DNA from: a virus
Taxonomy: Duplodnaviria > Heunggongvirae > Uroviricota > Caudoviricetes
Reading direction: 5' to 3' (one strand)
IMG/VR virus record: IMGVR_UViG_2778261316_000008
Length of the DNA: 34,102 nucleotides
Shown: piece after piece, positions 3,720 to 10,247 of the stretch
How the letters are laid out: each line of letters opens with the position of its first letter
How positions within the stretch are numbered: the stretch's first letter is position 1
Translations under genes and position numbers: made by a program
Notes under the pieces: generated by a model
What the model saw: the letters and a program-made list of their open reading frames with translations, nothing else
What the model was told of the DNA's origin: nothing
The model's database searches: none

Positions 3720-4886
3720 TTAAACTCCTTTGACGACGTCGGCGTTGACCTGCGGGACCCCGATTTCAGCAGCCAGATTCATGGCGGCTATCACCAGGTT
3801 ACTGACGGCCAGCGGATACAGCAGGCTGACCATGCTTTTACGGCTACTACCCAGATTGCTCAGACGGGCGCGGATGGCTTCCACTGCGCTGGCGTCCATG
3901 ATGTCGGCCAGCTGCTTACCGGCACGTTGCAGTTTGAACGTCAGAAACTCTTCGAGGCTGTTGTCCAGCGGCAGCAGTTCAACCACCTCGCAGCGCTGGA
4001 CGACCTCACGGACTTCCATGTTGCGTTCGGACAGTTTGTCCGCCAGTTCAGGCTGGCCAATCAGCACGATGGACAGCAGTTTTTTGAAGCCGGACTCCAG
4101 TTCGAAGAAGCGTTTAAGGTGCTTCAGCGTCGGAATGGGAAGGCTGTGGGCCTCCTCAATCACCAGAACGTGGCTGAAACCCGCCTGACTGCTGTCCTTC
4201 AGGACTCGGTGCAACTGGCGGAAGCGGGCGTCCTGGCTGCGCTTGATACTCTCCAGCGGCGCGATGGTGCTGATGATGGCCTCGGCGATAGCTGCCGCCT
4301 TCAGGGTTTTGCCCTTCACGTCGTTGTCTTCCATGGCGATGATGTATGGCTCGATTACAATCACCGGCGCGTTCTCGCGGTTGACGCGTTCAATCAGGTC
4401 GCGGCGCAGCGTGGATTTACCCGCACCGGACTCGCCGATAACCGCCAGAAAGCCACCATGGCGGGCGGTCTGGAACAGCGCCTCACGCACGTAGCGGATA
4501 TCCGGCGTGGTGAACACATCGTCCGCGCCCTGCATGGCTTCATCGGCGAACGGATCACGGAAAAGGCCAAACGCTTTTTTGGTTGCTGGAAATAACACCT
4601 GCTTTTTGAGTAACATGTTCTCTTCCTCACTGAGGTTGGTTTTATCGGTAGTACCCGCTGTACGGGGCGTGACAGCGCCCTGTGCAGCATCAAAACTTTT
4701 CGCTGTATCAATCCCCTTACTTTCCAGATACAACGCCAGACGCTGGCGTACCTCTTCGGGGCTGGTGCGTGGCCACTCGTTATGGTTCACAATCTGGGCC
4801 AGCGTGGCCTCGGAAACGGCGACGGCTCTTGCCACCACCGCCTGCGGGATGCGGGCCTCTTTCAGTTGTTGCTTCAGTACCAGCAT
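3720..4886 (-). CDS. AAA+ transposition ATPase (MuB/TniB/ExeA-like)
   Basis: Walker A GESGAGKST, Walker B-like hhhVIEEAH; N-terminal HTH-like region; directly downstream of DDE transposase; RBS GGAGGAAGG. Confidence 0.8.
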   Translation of the reverse strand: MLVLKQQLKEARIPQAVVARAVAVSEATLAQIVNHNEWPRTSPEEVRQRLALYLESKGIDTAKSFDAAQGAVTPRTAGTTDKTNLSEEENMLLKKQVLFPATKKAFGLFRDPFADEAMQGADDVFTTPDIRYVREALFQTARHGGFLAVIGESGAGKSTLRRDLIERVNRENAPVIVIEPYIIAMEDNDVKGKTLKAAAIAEAIISTIAPLESIKRSQDARFRQLHRVLKDSSQAGFSHVLVIEEAHSLPIPTLKHLKRFFELESGFKKLLSIVLIGQPELADKLSERNMEVREVVQRCEVVELLPLDNSLEEFLTFKLQRAGKQLADIMDASAVEAIRARLSNLGSSRKSMVSLLYPLAVSNLVIAAMNLAAEIGVPQVNADVVKGV

Positions 4887-4896
4887 GCCTTCCTCC

Positions 4897-6666
4897 TCAG
4901 TTACCGTTAACGATGCTGATAACGCTGTTGCGGGCCGGAGTGGTCAGGGTAACCATCACCTCATCCAGCGCGGCTTCAGGTACGCCATCCGGGTACTGCG
5001 CCGTTAACTGGCGGTAATGTTCCGGCGTCCAGATATGGCCGTTAGCGCCAAACTTCTCGCGCAGGGCTTTCGCCGCCTCCACATGGGTCAGCGGACGCTG
5101 CTCAATACGCGGCCCGCGCACGTCTGAAGCCTGACCGCGCTTCGGCATATAGGCCGGAAGCGTGGTGTCGTCGATATGTTTGTACGGGTCAAGTCGCCCG
5201 CCGAACGGCAGCGCCTTCGCCTTGCGTGCAGCAGCTGCATCGGTGGCGTTATCGGTGCCCGTAACCAGCTCTTCGATTTCTTTTGCCGCCGTCTGCGCCG
5301 GGGTCTCCGGCAGGGCTTTGTAGTTTTCGCCAAATACCGCCGCGCTTTCGGCAAAGCCGAACTCGTTCTTTCTGACCTCCTCGACCAGGAAGAACGTCTC
5401 GTGACCGTCCTCACCGGTCAGCACCACCTGCGCCACATCGCTGCGCCACGGGTTACGGGTAATCATCAGTTTTTCGCCGACCAGTACGCCCGGTACCGTC
5501 GAAACGTCAAACTCATTGCCCCGGAACGAGACGCGCAGTTTTGGTGTGACCTTACGGAGTTCCGGTGCGGCCACCGCCAGTTCGCGGCAAACCTCAACGG
5601 ATGGCGCTTTTTTCAGCTGGTCAGCAGTAATCTTCAGCCAGATATCCGTGCGGGTTTTACCGTGGCGGCTGTGGACCGCCGTGGCGTTAAAGTGGCTGCG
5701 CCATTTCACCGCCAGTGCGTTCAGTTCGTCCAGGCTATGAACCGGCTGGAATTTGAGACCCGGCTCCAGTTTACGTTCGATAATGTCACGGGCCTTTTCC
5801 ACCTGCCCGGTGGCGCGGGCGTTATGCGGCTTGTGCGCTATCAGATTGATGCCCAGCGAGCGGCACATGTTTTTCGTCATGCCAGCGGTGTTCGCCGAAC
5901 CGGGATCAAGGTAGAGTATTTTCGGCACGCCGTGCAGCACGTCCGCGCCGCCGCGCTCCTGCATGGCGTTGATAAGCACAGAACAGAGGTTCTCACCAGA
6001 TTCCGCACCCATCACGTACTCAACGTAAATCCAGCCGCTGGTATGGTCGGTAATCTCGTAACTCCACACGCGGTCACTGGCGATGCGGGCGATGTTGGCA
6101 GGCTTGTTCTTGTAGAACTTCGAGCTGTCCATCACCTGCAACCCTTTATGGCCGTTGCTCAGGTAGTAAAGCGTACAAAGTGAGGCATCAATCTCCCAGA
6201 CGTGATTGGGATGCAGGCTGGCCATCTCGGACGACGGGGCCGGTGCGTCAAGCTGTTCCGGGTGCAGACCATAGTTCCGCAGGGCGCGGCTGATGGTGTC
6301 CTCGGACAGCGGGAAAAACTCGCCTGTGGCCTCGTCCGTTCTGCCAGCAGTGATAAAGCCGTTTGACCGCAGGGTCTCCACCGCATCCGCGATGGAATAC
6401 AGGCGCTTACCGTTCTTACGGGTGGCCTCGCGCAGCGTGGCAGATATCAGCGCGGCTTCGTCGCGGCTCAGGGCACTGCGCCCGGCATCGGCGCGTTTTT
6501 TACGTTTGTCAGTCACTGATACCTCCTTCAGCTTGCGCAGCAGGGTGGCGCGGGAAATGCCCAGTTCGGCGCAGGCGGCATCATATATCGCACCACGCTT
6601 ACCATGCCCCGCGTCACGTGCCGCGCGGGCAACATAAACCAGTCGTTCAGTCAGGGCGGCACTCAT
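4897..6666 (-). CDS. DDE transposase (Mu A-like / rve integrase core)
   Basis: 589 aa; N-terminal HTH, integrase-core-like region (HPNHVWEIDAS...LYLDPGSANTA...) and C-terminal Mu-transposase-like region; RBS AGGAGG before ATG at 6666. Confidence 0.85.
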   Translation of the reverse strand: MSAALTERLVYVARAARDAGHGKRGAIYDAACAELGISRATLLRKLKEVSVTDKRKKRADAGRSALSRDEAALISATLREATRKNGKRLYSIADAVETLRSNGFITAGRTDEATGEFFPLSEDTISRALRNYGLHPEQLDAPAPSSEMASLHPNHVWEIDASLCTLYYLSNGHKGLQVMDSSKFYKNKPANIARIASDRVWSYEITDHTSGWIYVEYVMGAESGENLCSVLINAMQERGGADVLHGVPKILYLDPGSANTAGMTKNMCRSLGINLIAHKPHNARATGQVEKARDIIERKLEPGLKFQPVHSLDELNALAVKWRSHFNATAVHSRHGKTRTDIWLKITADQLKKAPSVEVCRELAVAAPELRKVTPKLRVSFRGNEFDVSTVPGVLVGEKLMITRNPWRSDVAQVVLTGEDGHETFFLVEEVRKNEFGFAESAAVFGENYKALPETPAQTAAKEIEELVTGTDNATDAAAARKAKALPFGGRLDPYKHIDDTTLPAYMPKRGQASDVRGPRIEQRPLTHVEAAKALREKFGANGHIWTPEHYRQLTAQYPDGVPEAALDEVMVTLTTPARNSVISIVNGN

Positions 6667-6669
6667 GGG

Positions 6670-7578
6670 TTATGCCTCCTGCCCGTTAATCTCTGGCGTC
6701 GGGTCAGTCAGCCATGAAGGGGCGGCGTTGCCTGTCGGCTCGTCCGGCAGGTCAAATGTGGAGCGCAGGCTACGCGCGGTGCTTTCCAACTGGCAGACCA
6801 GACCGGCCATAAAGTCTCTGGGGGTATCAATCATATTTTCAGCACAGTATGCGCACAGGGTCTCAAAGGCGCTGGACAGTCGAACGGCGATGGCAGATTC
6901 CGCCTCAACCGCTAACGCTGTAACTTCCGCACGCAGCTTCTTCACCTCTTCGTCAGGCTTGGGCGGCTGGATACGGGATTTCTTCTCCAGTTTTGTGGAG
7001 AGCGAGTCGATTTTTTCGTTTTTGTCGGCAAGCACGCGCTGTTGTGCTGCGTTGGTTTCACGCGCTTCGCGTAGGGCCGCTTTCAGTTCGCGGCTTGTCA
7101 TGCGATCAATATCATCGAGGCTCATACCAGCAATCGTGCCGCCATCGGCTAATTCGACGAGGTCTTCGTCATCTTCCGTCATCAACTCAAACAGCTTTGT
7201 TTTACCCAAAAGCGCAAGCGCTTGCGCTTTTGGTTCAAGCTTGGGAGACAAATATTTGAGGGATGCTTGCATCATCACCTGCGCGGTACGTTTGGATAGG
7301 GACAACTGAGACTCAACGATGTCGATGAAGTCACCATGTGGTTCATTTTCTTTGAGAATTACCAGTCGTTTACCCGCCTCCAGCATGGCTTCAGCACTCT
7401 GAGCCATATAAAAACGTGTTTCATGGACAATACGATCACGTTCATACGGCAGGCCATCACCAAACTGCTGCATGATTTCGAGGCGATGTTCGGACATAGC
7501 ATTAAGACTGACACTGAGACCATCGGTCAGCGGTGCATCTTCCACTAGTTCAACTGGTTGTGATTTTGTGCGTCCCAT
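6670..7578 (-). CDS. hypothetical coiled-coil protein
   Basis: 302-aa ORF between the wHTH gene and the transposase; charged/coiled-coil central region; no confident family. Confidence 0.55.
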   Translation of the reverse strand: MGRTKSQPVELVEDAPLTDGLSVSLNAMSEHRLEIMQQFGDGLPYERDRIVHETRFYMAQSAEAMLEAGKRLVILKENEPHGDFIDIVESQLSLSKRTAQVMMQASLKYLSPKLEPKAQALALLGKTKLFELMTEDDEDLVELADGGTIAGMSLDDIDRMTSRELKAALREARETNAAQQRVLADKNEKIDSLSTKLEKKSRIQPPKPDEEVKKLRAEVTALAVEAESAIAVRLSSAFETLCAYCAENMIDTPRDFMAGLVCQLESTARSLRSTFDLPDEPTGNAAPSWLTDPTPEINGQEA

Positions 7579-7587
7579 TTCAACTCC

Positions 7588-7893
7588 TTAGCGACTACCA
7601 GCCATAACACGCTGGTTAATTTCATTGATACGATCCTGCGCCCGCGCCATTTCGGTACTGTGCGCCATGGCGATTTGTAAGAGCTGGACTCCTGGGGCAA
7701 AACGCCCGTTATCCAGTTTCAGGGCCAGTCCTTCTTCGATAAGGGTATTGAGCGCCCGATTGATATTCGCCGGGGACTCGCCCAGAGCTGACGCCAGCTC
7801 GCCGTTAGAAACACCGTTCAGAGCGTGACCGCGTAAAGCCTTAAGGACACGCAAAATACGGGTACCTGAGCTTGATGTATTTGGTTTACTCAT
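7588..7893 (-). CDS. small winged-HTH DNA-binding protein (IclR-N-terminal-like)
   Basis: 101 aa; RILRVLKAL...VSNGELASALGESPANINRALNTLIEEGL resembles the IclR-type HTH. Confidence 0.5.
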   Translation of the reverse strand: MSKPNTSSSGTRILRVLKALRGHALNGVSNGELASALGESPANINRALNTLIEEGLALKLDNGRFAPGVQLLQIAMAHSTEMARAQDRINEINQRVMAGSR

Positions 7894-8114
7894 GACGCCT
7901 CCTTGAGGATGCCGGGGGTAACTTCTTTGCCTATTGCGACCGAAAGGTCTCGCAAAATCCGATAAGTCAAACGACCGCGTGGAAGTTCGCTTTTGCCTGC
8001 CCAGCGGCTGACAGCCTGGGTGACTGTTCGTGGCTCATAGCCCGCGTTAAGCGCGAACTGGCGCAAGCTACTGCCTCTTTCAACCAGCCGTGCCCGAACT
8101 TGTTGTTTGTTCAT
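7890..8114 (-). CDS. Ner-like DNA-binding protein (putative early/lytic regulator)
   Basis: 74 aa from ATG at 8114 (alternative GTG at 8120); LRQFALNAGYEPRTVTQAVSRW resembles Ner/Nlp family; first gene of the leftward arm, divergent from the repressor. Confidence 0.5.
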   Translation of the reverse strand: MNKQQVRARLVERGSSLRQFALNAGYEPRTVTQAVSRWAGKSELPRGRLTYRILRDLSVAIGKEVTPGILKEAS

Positions 8115-8202
8115 ATGCACCGTGTTCCTGTTGGGTTATGATGTACTCTATTGGGTCTATTGTACGCACCCGAACGGGTATGTCAAATTGAGATATGTTC
8201 AA
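8115..8202. promoter_or_regulatory. divergent promoter/operator region between Ner-like gene and repressor
   Basis: 88-bp gap between divergent start codons; two copies of CT(R)TTGGGT(Y)TA at 8129-8140 and 8149-8160 spaced 20 bp apart. Confidence 0.5.
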
Positions 8203-8613
8203 ATGAGTATAAAAGAGAGATTGCGCGAAGCGATGGATGCTAAGAGTCTGACAATTAAGGCATTGTCAGACTTGTCAAAAATTCCATATCGCTCACTTCA
8301 AAACTATCTGCGTGGAGAGAGAGAACCTAATGCAGAGGCTCTTGTTGCGCTAAGCACCCATTTGAACATATCAATAGATTGGCTACTTACTGGTAAAGGG
8401 GAAGCTGTTGGGGTAGAGAAAGCACAGCCAGCTAATCAGGAGCAGCATTTCAACCAGTCTGATCTGAAGTTATTGGAGCTGCTCAACCAACTGGAGCCAG
8501 AGGTGCGAAAAGAGTTGCTGCGAGGCGCTGAGGAAAAACAGCGAATGATTGATATGGAAAAACAGCTTAAGGAGCTGTCCGCAGCGTTCGAAAGATTAAA
8601 AAATACGGGTTAA
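8203..8613 (+). CDS. XRE-family HTH repressor (putative lysogeny repressor)
   Basis: ATG at 8203 (MSIKERLREAMD...); N-terminal Cro/C1-type HTH, C-terminal coiled coil; divergent from Ner-like gene; AT-rich. Confidence 0.7.
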   Translation: MSIKERLREAMDAKSLTIKALSDLSKIPYRSLQNYLRGEREPNAEALVALSTHLNISIDWLLTGKGEAVGVEKAQPANQEQHFNQSDLKLLELLNQLEPEVRKELLRGAEEKQRMIDMEKQLKELSAAFERLKNTG

Positions 8614-8648: not shown

Positions 8649-9182
8649 ATGACTATGCGCAAATTATTTTTACCGTTGATATTTGTTTTATCTGGGTGTG
8701 GAGATAATACCGATCCTGCTGATACGTCCACCACAGCTAAGGAGCACGCGGTTTTTAGCGTTGAAACAGATAATCCGGTTGTAAATCGCGAATTACCGTT
8801 TATTCGCCAACAACTCCCCGGCCTGGATAAGTACGCGGACAGTTTTGAAAAAGTCGAAGTATCCGAGGATAGCGAACGTCCGGTGACAACGGTGCAGTTT
8901 CATATTAAAGACGAAAATAATATTCCAAGTGACTACATAGCCTCTGGTCATAATTGTTATTTGTTCATATCAAATAATGCCCACGAAGTGAAAATATCTA
9001 AATCAGCATGTCAGGCTGTTTTTTTCGATAAAACGGATGTTCCTGGTGGAGACCTGACCGTGAAACTTGATAAGGAAAAAGTTCCTATGACAGATGATGG
9101 TAAGACCCCGCGAGCAGGTTGTTTGAAAGCTTATTCACCAGAGCCAGATAATGATTATTGGACTTGTCCAAGGCAGGATTAA
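8649..9182 (+). CDS. lipoprotein (moron candidate)
   Basis: Signal peptide MRKLFLPLIFVLSGC with lipobox LSGC, Gly at +2; four further Cys; markedly AT-rich relative to late genes; 36 bp downstream of repressor with no intervening hairpin. Confidence 0.7.
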   Translation: MTMRKLFLPLIFVLSGCGDNTDPADTSTTAKEHAVFSVETDNPVVNRELPFIRQQLPGLDKYADSFEKVEVSEDSERPVTTVQFHIKDENNIPSDYIASGHNCYLFISNNAHEVKISKSACQAVFFDKTDVPGGDLTVKLDKEKVPMTDDGKTPRAGCLKAYSPEPDNDYWTCPRQD

Positions 9183-9189
9183 ATGTTTA

Positions 9190-9212
9190 GGTGGTGCTGC
9201 AGATGCACCACC
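9190..9212. terminator. GC-rich hairpin between convergent lipoprotein and methyltransferase genes
   Basis: GGTGGTGC-TGCAGAT-GCACCACC (8-bp stem, 7-nt loop) followed by ACCTTT; lies between two convergent stop codons. Confidence 0.45.
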
Positions 9213-9229
9213 ACCTTTAACTACCTCTT

Positions 9230-10000
9230 TCAAAAATTACAAATTACCAGCTCTTTCTTCGGGCTGGGTTTGCCTGTTACCTTAAGGTTGTAGCTGATAT
9301 CAACCGACTGCATGTTCAGACCGTTGAATACCTGCCGCATTTCCGGGATATCGTTCACTGATATAATCATCTTCCCTTTGATCCTTCGCGCTAAATCTGC
9401 CATGTGATCATAGTTTTCCAGCCCGAACTCCACACCATAGCCTTCCGTTCCCCAGTACGGTGGGTCACAGTAGAACAGCGTATGCGGGCGATCATATCGC
9501 TCTATGCACTGGTGCCAGTCCAGATGCTCTATCAGCGTTCTCGACAGGCGCAGGTGTGCCATCGACAGTTCTTCCTCAATACGCAGCAAATTGAAGCGCG
9601 GCGCACTGGTTGTAGAGGTACCGAATGTGTGATCGGCGACCTTGCCGCCAAATGCCTGTTTCTGCAGGTAGTAGAACCGGGCCGCCCGCTGAATGTCGGT
9701 GAGCGTTTCTTCCGGCGTATCCTGCAACCATTTGTAAATCTGACGGCTGACCAGCGCCCATTTGAACTGGCGAATAAATTCTTCCAGATGATGCTTGACC
9801 ACCCGATAGAGGTTCACCAGTTCCCCGTTGATATCGTTAATGACTTCGGTCTTGCTGGGAGTCTTTAGGAAATAGAGCGCAGCTGCCCCGCAGAACGGCT
9901 CCACATAGCAGGTATGGGCCGGAAACAATGGTAAAATATGCTTCGCCAGACGACGTTTACCGCCAATCCATGGGACGATGGGTAAAGATTGTTCTTTCAT
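9230..10000 (-). CDS. Dam-like N6-adenine DNA methyltransferase (D12 class)
   Basis: DPPY motif (LFYCDPPYWG), SAM-binding-like EPFCGAAALYF; ATG at 10000 (alternative TTG at 10024). Confidence 0.8.
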   Translation of the reverse strand: MKEQSLPIVPWIGGKRRLAKHILPLFPAHTCYVEPFCGAAALYFLKTPSKTEVINDINGELVNLYRVVKHHLEEFIRQFKWALVSRQIYKWLQDTPEETLTDIQRAARFYYLQKQAFGGKVADHTFGTSTTSAPRFNLLRIEEELSMAHLRLSRTLIEHLDWHQCIERYDRPHTLFYCDPPYWGTEGYGVEFGLENYDHMADLARRIKGKMIISVNDIPEMRQVFNGLNMQSVDISYNLKVTGKPSPKKELVICNF

Positions 10001-10247
10001 TATCCGTAAGCCTTTTGCAATCAATGAAAATATGGCAGGCTAGTCTGGTCTCGCGAGACTGACTGAACCCTGGTCGGCTCACAGTGCATACCTGTGGGTT
10101 GATGACCAGCCTGGTGTTACCGCACCGGGCTGGTCGTTCTTTCAAAGCCATCATGCGGTTCACGTCTGCATCCTCACTATTAACGCTGTTTAAAATCCCT
10201 TTCCCCGACCATTTGTGATGCTGTCTCCACTACACAAGGAGACGCTC

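Follow-up and report, generated by a model that had tools for sequence, protein, structure and literature searches.

The Locus and Its Element

The stretch of DNA analyzed here by computational means, hereafter called the window, covers 34,102 bp and is a BcepMu-like transposable (Mu-like) prophage, with a DDE transposase and a B-like ATPase homologous to those of BcepMu and encoded in a leftward early operon. The transposase showed 67.8% identity to that of BcepMu (over 98% of the length), 69% to that of phiE255 and 57% to that of B3; in the PHROG search, the B-like ATPase matched phrog_296, and phrog_310 was also matched in the early operon. This DNA occurs with 100% identity in E. coli Ecol_542 and with 99.8% identity in the phage records Phi06_2974 B and Klebsiella phage KP12. 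A search of 5426 complete E. coli genomes placed the element in 69, of which 39 carry 80% or more of the region, and it was also detected in Klebsiella, Citrobacter, Enterobacter, Salmonella, Pantoea and Yersinia. For the comparative analysis, 52 loci were collected from E. coli genomes, one-per-species genomes and viral contigs, and 14 lineages were aligned; these lineages are kin to one another, and conservation counts across the loci are thus interdependent. A scan of genome contigs gave 15 loci, many of which were relatives by the N-terminal domain only, placed in other contexts and lacking motif matches.

An earlier note on this DNA had described an 88-bp gap between a Ner-like gene and a repressor gene and had read it as a divergent control region. 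Both observations were reproduced: the gap, 8115-8202, lies between the ner-like ATG at 8114 on the (-) strand and the repressor ATG at 8203, and it separates the repressor gene from the gene that heads the early (transposase) operon. The ATG at 8114 is the start given in RefSeq-style annotation, and an in-frame GTG at 8120 is an alternative, located 5 nt from AGGA, with better Shine-Dalgarno spacing and matching the ATG of the related loci L033 and L034. If the GTG is used, the gap is 82 bp. The features of the locus are collected in Table 1.

Table 1. Genes, promoter elements, predicted operators and repeats at the locus; positions are those of the window.
Feature	Position	Strand	Description
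AAA "DNA transposition protein" gene	3720-4886	-	Early operon, fifth in order
rve/DDE transposase gene	4897-6666	-	Early operon, fourth in order
DUF3102 protein gene	6670-7578	-	Early operon, third in order
IclR-type HTH protein gene	7588-7893	-	Leftward early operon, second in order
ner-like gene	7890-8114	-	First of the early operon; small HTH protein, 74 aa, in the Ner/Cro position
First 12-mer	8128-8139		CTGTTGGGTTAT
Putative Pc -10	8137-8142	+	TATGAT; faces Pe; inferred start near 8149
O2 (predicted)	8141-8158	+	ATGTACTCTATTGGGTCT; core ACTC-TATT-GGGT, 8145-8156; between the -10 boxes, spanning both inferred starts
Second 12-mer	8148-8159		CTATTGGGTCTA
Pe -10	8159-8164	-	TACAAT; 16-nt spacer; inferred start near 8152
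O1 (predicted)	8164-8181	+	ACGCACCCGAACGGGTAT; core ACCC-GAAC-GGGT, 8168-8179; in the Pe spacer
Pe -35	8181-8186	-	TTGACA; from the promoter scan; 5-6 of 6 bases in 13 of 14 aligned lineages
O3 (predicted)	8193-8212		ATATGTTCAAATGAGTATAA; core GTTC-AAAT-GAGT, 8197-8208; contains the repressor ATG
Repressor gene	8203-8613	+	136 aa; XRE/HTH_3 at residues 1-63, disordered linker, long C-terminal helices
O4 (predicted)	8352-8369	+	AAGCACCCATTTGAACAT; core ACCC-ATTT-GAAC, 8356-8367; in repressor codons 51-56

The genes just 3' of the repressor vary among relatives (window, 8649-10024; L002, 2626-4079; L003, 3187-4477). In the window, a lipoprotein-like ORF and a Dam-type D12 methyltransferase are found there on the opposite strand; in L002, a nucleoid-associated protein; and in L003, other hypothetical proteins followed by a methylase. 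This region looks like a cargo (moron) hot spot.

The Two Proteins Flanking the Gap

The repressor scored 42.7 bits against the Pfam family HTH_3 (PF01381; cut-off 23) and 26.5 bits against Phage_CI_repr, also above the cut-off of that family. In the PHROG search it fell into "transcriptional repressor" families, and XRE-type HTH families were the only matches. The PDB matches indicated that its N-terminal domain resembles those of ImmR, DdrO and P22 C2, and the AlphaFold2 model (pLDDT 72) displayed an HTH domain at residues 1-63, a linker, and helices at 85-95 and 99-135. No Peptidase_S24 domain was detected, either by the Pfam search or in the model, where the linker and helices are found, and therefore the protein is not a strict cI/LexA-type repressor. 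Similarly, the DNA-binding domain of the Mu-type c repressor was not found with Pfam or PHROG, and the tblastn search with the repressor matched no BcepMu, phiE255 or B3 record. The recognition-helix segment IPYRSLQNYLRGEREP was invariant among the repressor homologues down to 43% overall identity, and similar operator specificity is therefore expected among them.

A perfect 11-bp inverted repeat is present within the repressor gene (8245-8255, AGTCTGACAAT, and 8262-8272, ATTGTCAGACT, separated by a 6-nt loop; RNA hairpin of -15.6 kcal/mol). It was considered as a regulatory hairpin or site and set aside, with complementarity of 6-8 out of 11 in close relatives and 2-5 out of 11 in distant ones; judging by these alignments, it is probably lineage-specific and without function.

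The Ner-like protein matched phrog_8503, a family with no assigned function (E 5e-35), and 47-74 of its 74 residues were identical across the related loci. The name that it had received in the earlier note is borne out by the position of the gene and not by homology: against HTH_35 the score was 16.7 bits, below the cut-off of 25, and the comparison with solved structures, with E values up to 10, gave no convincing match, the best being an unrelated lysozyme (E 0.021). "Ner-like" is thus a label by position only. The start regions of the ner-like and repressor genes are alike, with 71% identity between 8097-8117 and 8185-8205 (TGTTCAtATG and TGTTCAaATG, respectively).

Promoter Pe and Putative Promoter Pc

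Pe was the sole strong sigma-70 promoter found by the scan, matching 11 of the 12 consensus bases, and it was kept in 13 of the 14 aligned lineages. Facing it, the putative promoter Pc has a weak -35 element (TATGCA, 8114-8119; 2-4 of 6 consensus bases across lineages) and a better conserved -10 region. The hexamer of the window aligned with TAnnnT in all 14 lineages, with T8137 and T8142 invariant and A8138 nearly so; the -10 hexamers matched 4-5 of 6 bases in 13 of the 14, and G8135, at position -14 of the putative promoter, was nearly invariant over the 14 lineages. Both -10 boxes flank the 12-bp core of O2 symmetrically, with 2 bp on each side, and therefore Pe and Pc would face each other with start sites that nearly coincide. 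On this pattern of conservation, Pc probably drives the repressor gene rightward. In B3, overlapping pE/pC2 promoters have been described in the lysis-lysogeny region, and such an arrangement is reported to be widespread among related phages (PMC9936078).

A leaderless repressor mRNA, transcribed from a -10 element just 5' of the ATG, was also considered. It fits L036 and L038, where TAATAT is followed by 6 nt and the ATG, but is disfavored by the window, which has AGATAT, and by most lineages, which lack T1/A2; the conserved AT.T is better read as a flank of O3.

A Family of Predicted Operators

The predicted repressor operator is an imperfect palindrome, ACyC-N4-GrGT, with an A/T-rich N4 and with flanks. 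The block in the Pe spacer reads ACGCACCCGAACGGGTAT in the window, ACACACCCGAATGAGTGT in L001 and ACGTACTCAAACGAGTAG in L008, and that between the -10 boxes ATGTACTCTATTGGGTCT in the window, ATGTACTCAATTGGGTTT in L036 and GTGTACTCATATGGGCAA in L044. An 18-mer matrix was trained on O1 and O2 from seven distant loci only, with the window and its close relatives excluded, and was applied to both strands of the full 34,102 bp (about 68,000 positions); O3 and O4 were outside the training set. The four best distinct sites in the whole window were O2 (17.9 bits), O3 (17.5 bits on the (-) strand and 16.0 on the (+) strand), O4 (15.1-17.0 bits) and O1 (12.8-14.6 bits), the window's own O1 being weak at 12.8 bits. 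Four hits of at least 15 bits were observed, against 0.16 expected in random 34-kb sequence, and all of them lay within 8141-8369. The matrix is symmetric, with ACyC (positions 5-8) mirroring GrGT (positions 13-16), and this fits the dimeric ImmR, DdrO and P22 C2-like domains that the repressor matched. HTH_3 repressors of solved structure bind dyads.

When leave-one-out scans were performed across the lineages, sites were found at -53, -30, 0 and +159 from the repressor ATG: O2 (-53) and O1 (-30) in all lineages, O3 (0) in many, and O4 (+159) in nearly all. In the window, O1 is 23 bp from O2 and 29 bp from O3. The left half of O2 was 92% conserved in the distant lineages, and the changes of O1 in L001 and L002 preserve the dyad (ACACACCC..GAGTGTGT). 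In L010, the spacing between O2 and O1 is 34 bp, i.e., 23 + 11, which is one helical turn more and keeps the helical phase. This locus (1430-1500, Conservatibacter flavescens) shares only the N-terminal domain; its O1 lies in a TTGACA-17-TATTAT spacer, and there is no Ner-like gene upstream. When the O2 14-mer of each locus was used as a Hamming query on that locus, the top four matches included +159 and/or -29 in 7 of 10 lineages, and the O2 of the window used alone in this way did not recover the window's O1, O3 and O4. Counts of exact 4-N-4 dyads were tried as an unbiased motif finder and were too stringent, with ACCC and ACTC at the top for gap 4 in two lineages each.

Elsewhere in the window, a weak motif-like sequence, TTTTACCCAAAAGCGCAA, was observed at 7200-7217 within the DUF3102 gene (10.2 bits with a matrix built on O1 only), with a good left half and a poor right half. 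L033 contains its equivalent at about -1005 from the repressor ATG, which could be homology or a stray half-site.

Heteroimmune Variants

Two loci, L003 (2540-3070, E. coli EE72d) and L004, are heteroimmune E. coli prophages whose Ner-like protein is identical to that of the window at 73 of 74 residues. Their repressor aligns with that of the window from residue 56 on only (62% identity), the N-terminal HTH being different and of the PF07022 type, and their DNA remains homologous to the window only as far as about 8148. The break in homology therefore delimits a swapped module, which begins immediately to the right of the start sites and extends across the portion of the repressor gene that encodes the HTH. 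The scan with the window-type matrix found no window-type sites in these two loci. A different motif, CAAWATGAATAA, stands at these four operator positions instead, with 8 hits where 1.14 were expected: it was found in L003 at 2593, the O2 position; at 2616 (+23), in the Pe spacer; and at 2644 (+51), over the ATG, with an intragenic palindrome, TTATGCAATTTGCATAA, at 2785-2801 (about +145). A further motif of this type lies over the ner-like start codon. That site (2552-2563), along with the 71% similarity of the two start regions in the window, suggested a window-type site at the window's ner-like start codon; this candidate was discarded, as 8085-8130 nowhere reaches 5 bits. Thus, in the sequences compared, the predicted motif changes along with the DNA-binding domain and the layout is constant, as operators should behave.

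The Segment Next to the ner-Like Gene

The segment 8121-8148, which includes the first 12-mer, stays with the ner-like gene in these variants. It may be a site at which the Ner-like protein, once induction has occurred, would turn off Pc and reduce the activity of Pe, in the manner of Ner in Mu. In favor of such a role, the segment has stayed with the 99% identical ner-like gene through the immunity swap, it contains the putative Pc -10, and it shows moderate conservation in all those loci that keep the Ner-like HTH. Against it, no segment-specific repeat or dyad motif was found in it, L044 retains TTGG-TAAGT without a Ner-like gene, and the protein is not demonstrably a Ner homologue. Moreover, the ribosome-binding site and the -10 element can by themselves explain the conservation. 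The first 12-mer overlaps both the complement of the ner-like Shine-Dalgarno sequence (TCCT, 8126-8129) and the -14G and -10 of the putative Pc, and its moderate conservation is attributed to this overlap: in the distant lineages, identity to the window was 57% for the 12-mer, 67% for the Shine-Dalgarno complement and 64% for the Pc -10, against 23% for the most neutral-looking stretch (8187-8194). We regard a Ner-like protein site in this segment as a doubtful reading; the first 12-mer may have some function, possibly the binding of that protein.

Synonymous Constraint at O3 and O4

Both O3 and O4 overlap conserved coding sequence, and part of their conservation is for this reason protein-driven. 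It could then be argued that neither is an operator, that conserved codons (MSI..., THLGIS) resemble the motif by chance, and that only O1 and O2 are functional; in agreement with this, both sites fall in the most conserved segments of the protein, and the reading frame sets their separation, which makes their constant position uninformative. The codon-usage comparison, which covered 25 distinct repressor genes, argues against it, since synonymous positions are frozen where the motif needs them. Within O4, Leu54 was encoded by TTG in all 25 genes, with a background TTG share of 21%; His53 was CAT in 19 of 19, Gly55 was GGT in 12 of 13, Thr52 was ACC or ACT in 21 of 21, and Ile56 kept the rare ATA in 19 of 20. 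The other fully conserved leucines (7, 47, 61 and 62) use 3-6 codons each, and the codons flanking O4 vary freely. Furthermore, where the amino acid itself changed from histidine to arginine or glutamine, the motif was left intact (T-R-L-G, ACTCGTTTGGGT; T-Q-L-G, ACTCAATTGGGT). At O3, codons 2-4 of the repressor (AGT ATA AAA) showed almost no synonymous variation, which is consistent with a site there, and the heteroimmune type has its own motif over the ATG and a palindrome at about +145. These data indicate that the predicted O4 is held by synonymous-codon constraint, and a chance resemblance of codons to the motif at the two sites is unlikely.

The Paired 12-mers

The earlier note had proposed two similar 12-mers, with TTGGGT cores 20 bp apart on one helical face, as candidate operators. 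The two copies are indeed present, with a start-to-start distance of exactly 20 bp; they are identical at 9 of 12 positions, and at 8 of 9 over CTRTTGGGT, which has no further occurrence elsewhere in the 34-kb window. The pair is, nevertheless, not more than chance would give: when the 88 bp were shuffled 5000 times with the dinucleotides preserved, 20% of the shuffles contained a 9-mer pair matching at 8 or more of 9 positions, and 41.5% a 12-mer pair matching at 9 or more of 12. A pair at helical-phase spacing appeared in 3.9% of the shuffles, by a criterion picked post hoc, and two window-wide matches to CTRTTGGGT were reached in 12 of 100 shuffles.

The two copies differ in their relation to the predicted operators. 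The second takes in the last left-arm base of O2, its center and its right arm, with TTGGGT (8151-8156) as that arm, and also includes the first base of the Pe -10. The first ranked 880th in the window with the family matrix, at -1.4 bits. As the right half of a fifth operator it was rejected, with 4.5 bits for the right half, a value found once per 167 positions, and -6.1 for the left half. Among relatives, the first copy reads CTGTTAGGT in L002 and L029-L032 and CTCTGAGCT in L036 and L008, where the 12-mer is also given as CTCTGAGC; the second copy reads ATACGGCG or ATATGACG in L039 and L040. In L002 and L029-L032, the core of the first copy is TTAGGT, having lost the G found at position 13 of every training site, despite an identical recognition helix. 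Co-conservation of both copies as one recognition motif was not observed in the orthologous loci. They are retained together in the closest relatives and in L033-L035, but the pair is missing from L036, L008 and L038, where both proteins persist. In L003 and L004, the second copy has been replaced despite the 99% identical Ner-like protein, and the first is retained beside a foreign HTH domain. By all the tests of this analysis, the first 12-mer is no predicted operator.

Even with both copies in place at the exact spacing and the first conserved above the neutral baseline, it is highly improbable, given these results and the preference of HTH_3 repressors for dyads, that the 12-mers are direct-repeat operators bound on one helical face by the repressor, the Ner-like protein or both. 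The suggestion that the gap holds candidate operators was right in that predicted operators lie in it and the second 12-mer falls within O2; the TTGGGT direct repeat is not the recognized unit, and O1, O3 and the intragenic O4 had gone unmentioned. The short direct repeat spotted by eye was thus half right for the wrong reason, and stands as a caution.

Proposed Switch

We consider it likely, from the arrangement of motifs, promoters and genes, that the gap is an immunity switch in which Pe and Pc face each other and an XRE-type repressor acts on the dyads O1-O4, with O3 and O4 auxiliary. What the sequences themselves show are the motifs with their positions and conservation, their joint change with the HTH domain, and the synonymous constraint; binding of the repressor, the start sites, Pc and looping are predictions drawn from these. 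Pe would fire leftward into the ner-like, IclR-type HTH, DUF3102, transposase and B-like ATPase genes, and the weak Pc would probably fire rightward into the repressor gene. The repressor would bind the ACyC-N4-GrGT palindromes, presumably as a dimer, and dimers on O1, in the Pe spacer, and on O2, at the start sites, would block RNA polymerase at Pe and keep the transposase operon silent. O2, plus O3 at about +45 to +62 of the Pc transcript, would limit Pc, giving negative autoregulation. O3 and O4 would probably be auxiliary, through cooperative binding or looping via the C-terminal helical domain. After induction, by a route other than S24 cleavage, Pe would fire, and the Ner-like protein would presumably shut Pc.

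The center-to-center distances are 52 bp between O2 and O3, 159 bp between O3 and O4, and 211 bp between O2 and O4, close to 5, 15 and 20 helical turns, respectively. A more specific proposal, which we put forward tentatively and to which we give somewhat less than an even chance, is that the repressor's own gene contains two operators to which its product binds, one around the start codon and one in codons 51-56 kept there by synonymous-site selection; with O1 and O2, they would form a phased four-site array, looped by the C-terminal helices, that sets the repressor level and sharpens the switch. Under the phased-array proposal, it would be the layout and not the sequence that is conserved, the L003-type HTH having another motif at the same four positions.

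Relation to Known Systems

The predicted switch of the window would work in a lambdoid/ImmR-like manner, set in a Mu-like phage gene order. The N-terminal HTH_3 domain is common to the window repressor and to P22 C2, 434 cI, lambda cI and ICEBs1 ImmR. Lambdoid/XRE repressors act at several imperfect dyads over the lytic promoter and their own, a layout that the predicted sites resemble, and heteroimmunity arises among them by a swap of DNA-binding domain and operators, as in L003 and L004. Unlike lambda cI and P22 C2, the window repressor lacks S24 and has a linker and long helices instead; and, in contrast to the lambdoid arrangement, the predicted operators are 23 and 29 bp apart, with one over the start codon and one intragenic, in a transposable prophage. 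These last two predicted sites are the only features that we find unusual, and mildly so.

The window shares with Mu and D108 its gene order: the repressor gene, a divergent small HTH gene occupying the Ner position, and the genes for transposase A and the B ATPase. In Mu and D108 the repressor controls Pe, and that of the window would do so too. However, the window repressor is an HTH_3 protein and not a winged-helix c repressor, the gap is just 88 bp, and the Ner-like protein falls below the HTH_35 cut-off. Both proteins fail the family tests, and the window switch therefore stands outside the Mu c/Ner family. In Mu, the O1-O3 sites differ in sequence and are accompanied by an IHF site.

In the B3/Fc02/BcepMu group, the transposases are 57-69% identical to that of the window, and B3 has overlapping pE/pC promoters (PMC9936078). 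No repressor homologue was detectable in the records of BcepMu, phiE255 and B3, and the immunity module of the window differs from theirs. In the literature on BcepMu, Bcepmuvirus and transposable phages, we found no description of the window switch or its operators.

The gal OI, lac O2 and TP901-1 OD sites are auxiliary intragenic operators that work with looping. The predicted O4 is similar to them in being a conserved site within coding sequence, separated from the promoter-proximal sites by some 160-210 bp and by near-integral turns; the difference is that it lies in the repressor's own gene, where any looping is a proposal.

The analysis yields a predicted operator map of four sites with named bases, which is open to direct and cheap experiments. 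For the family, it suggests that heteroimmune variants arise by exchanging the HTH domain together with the predicted operators, while the ner-like gene and the oligomerization domain are retained.
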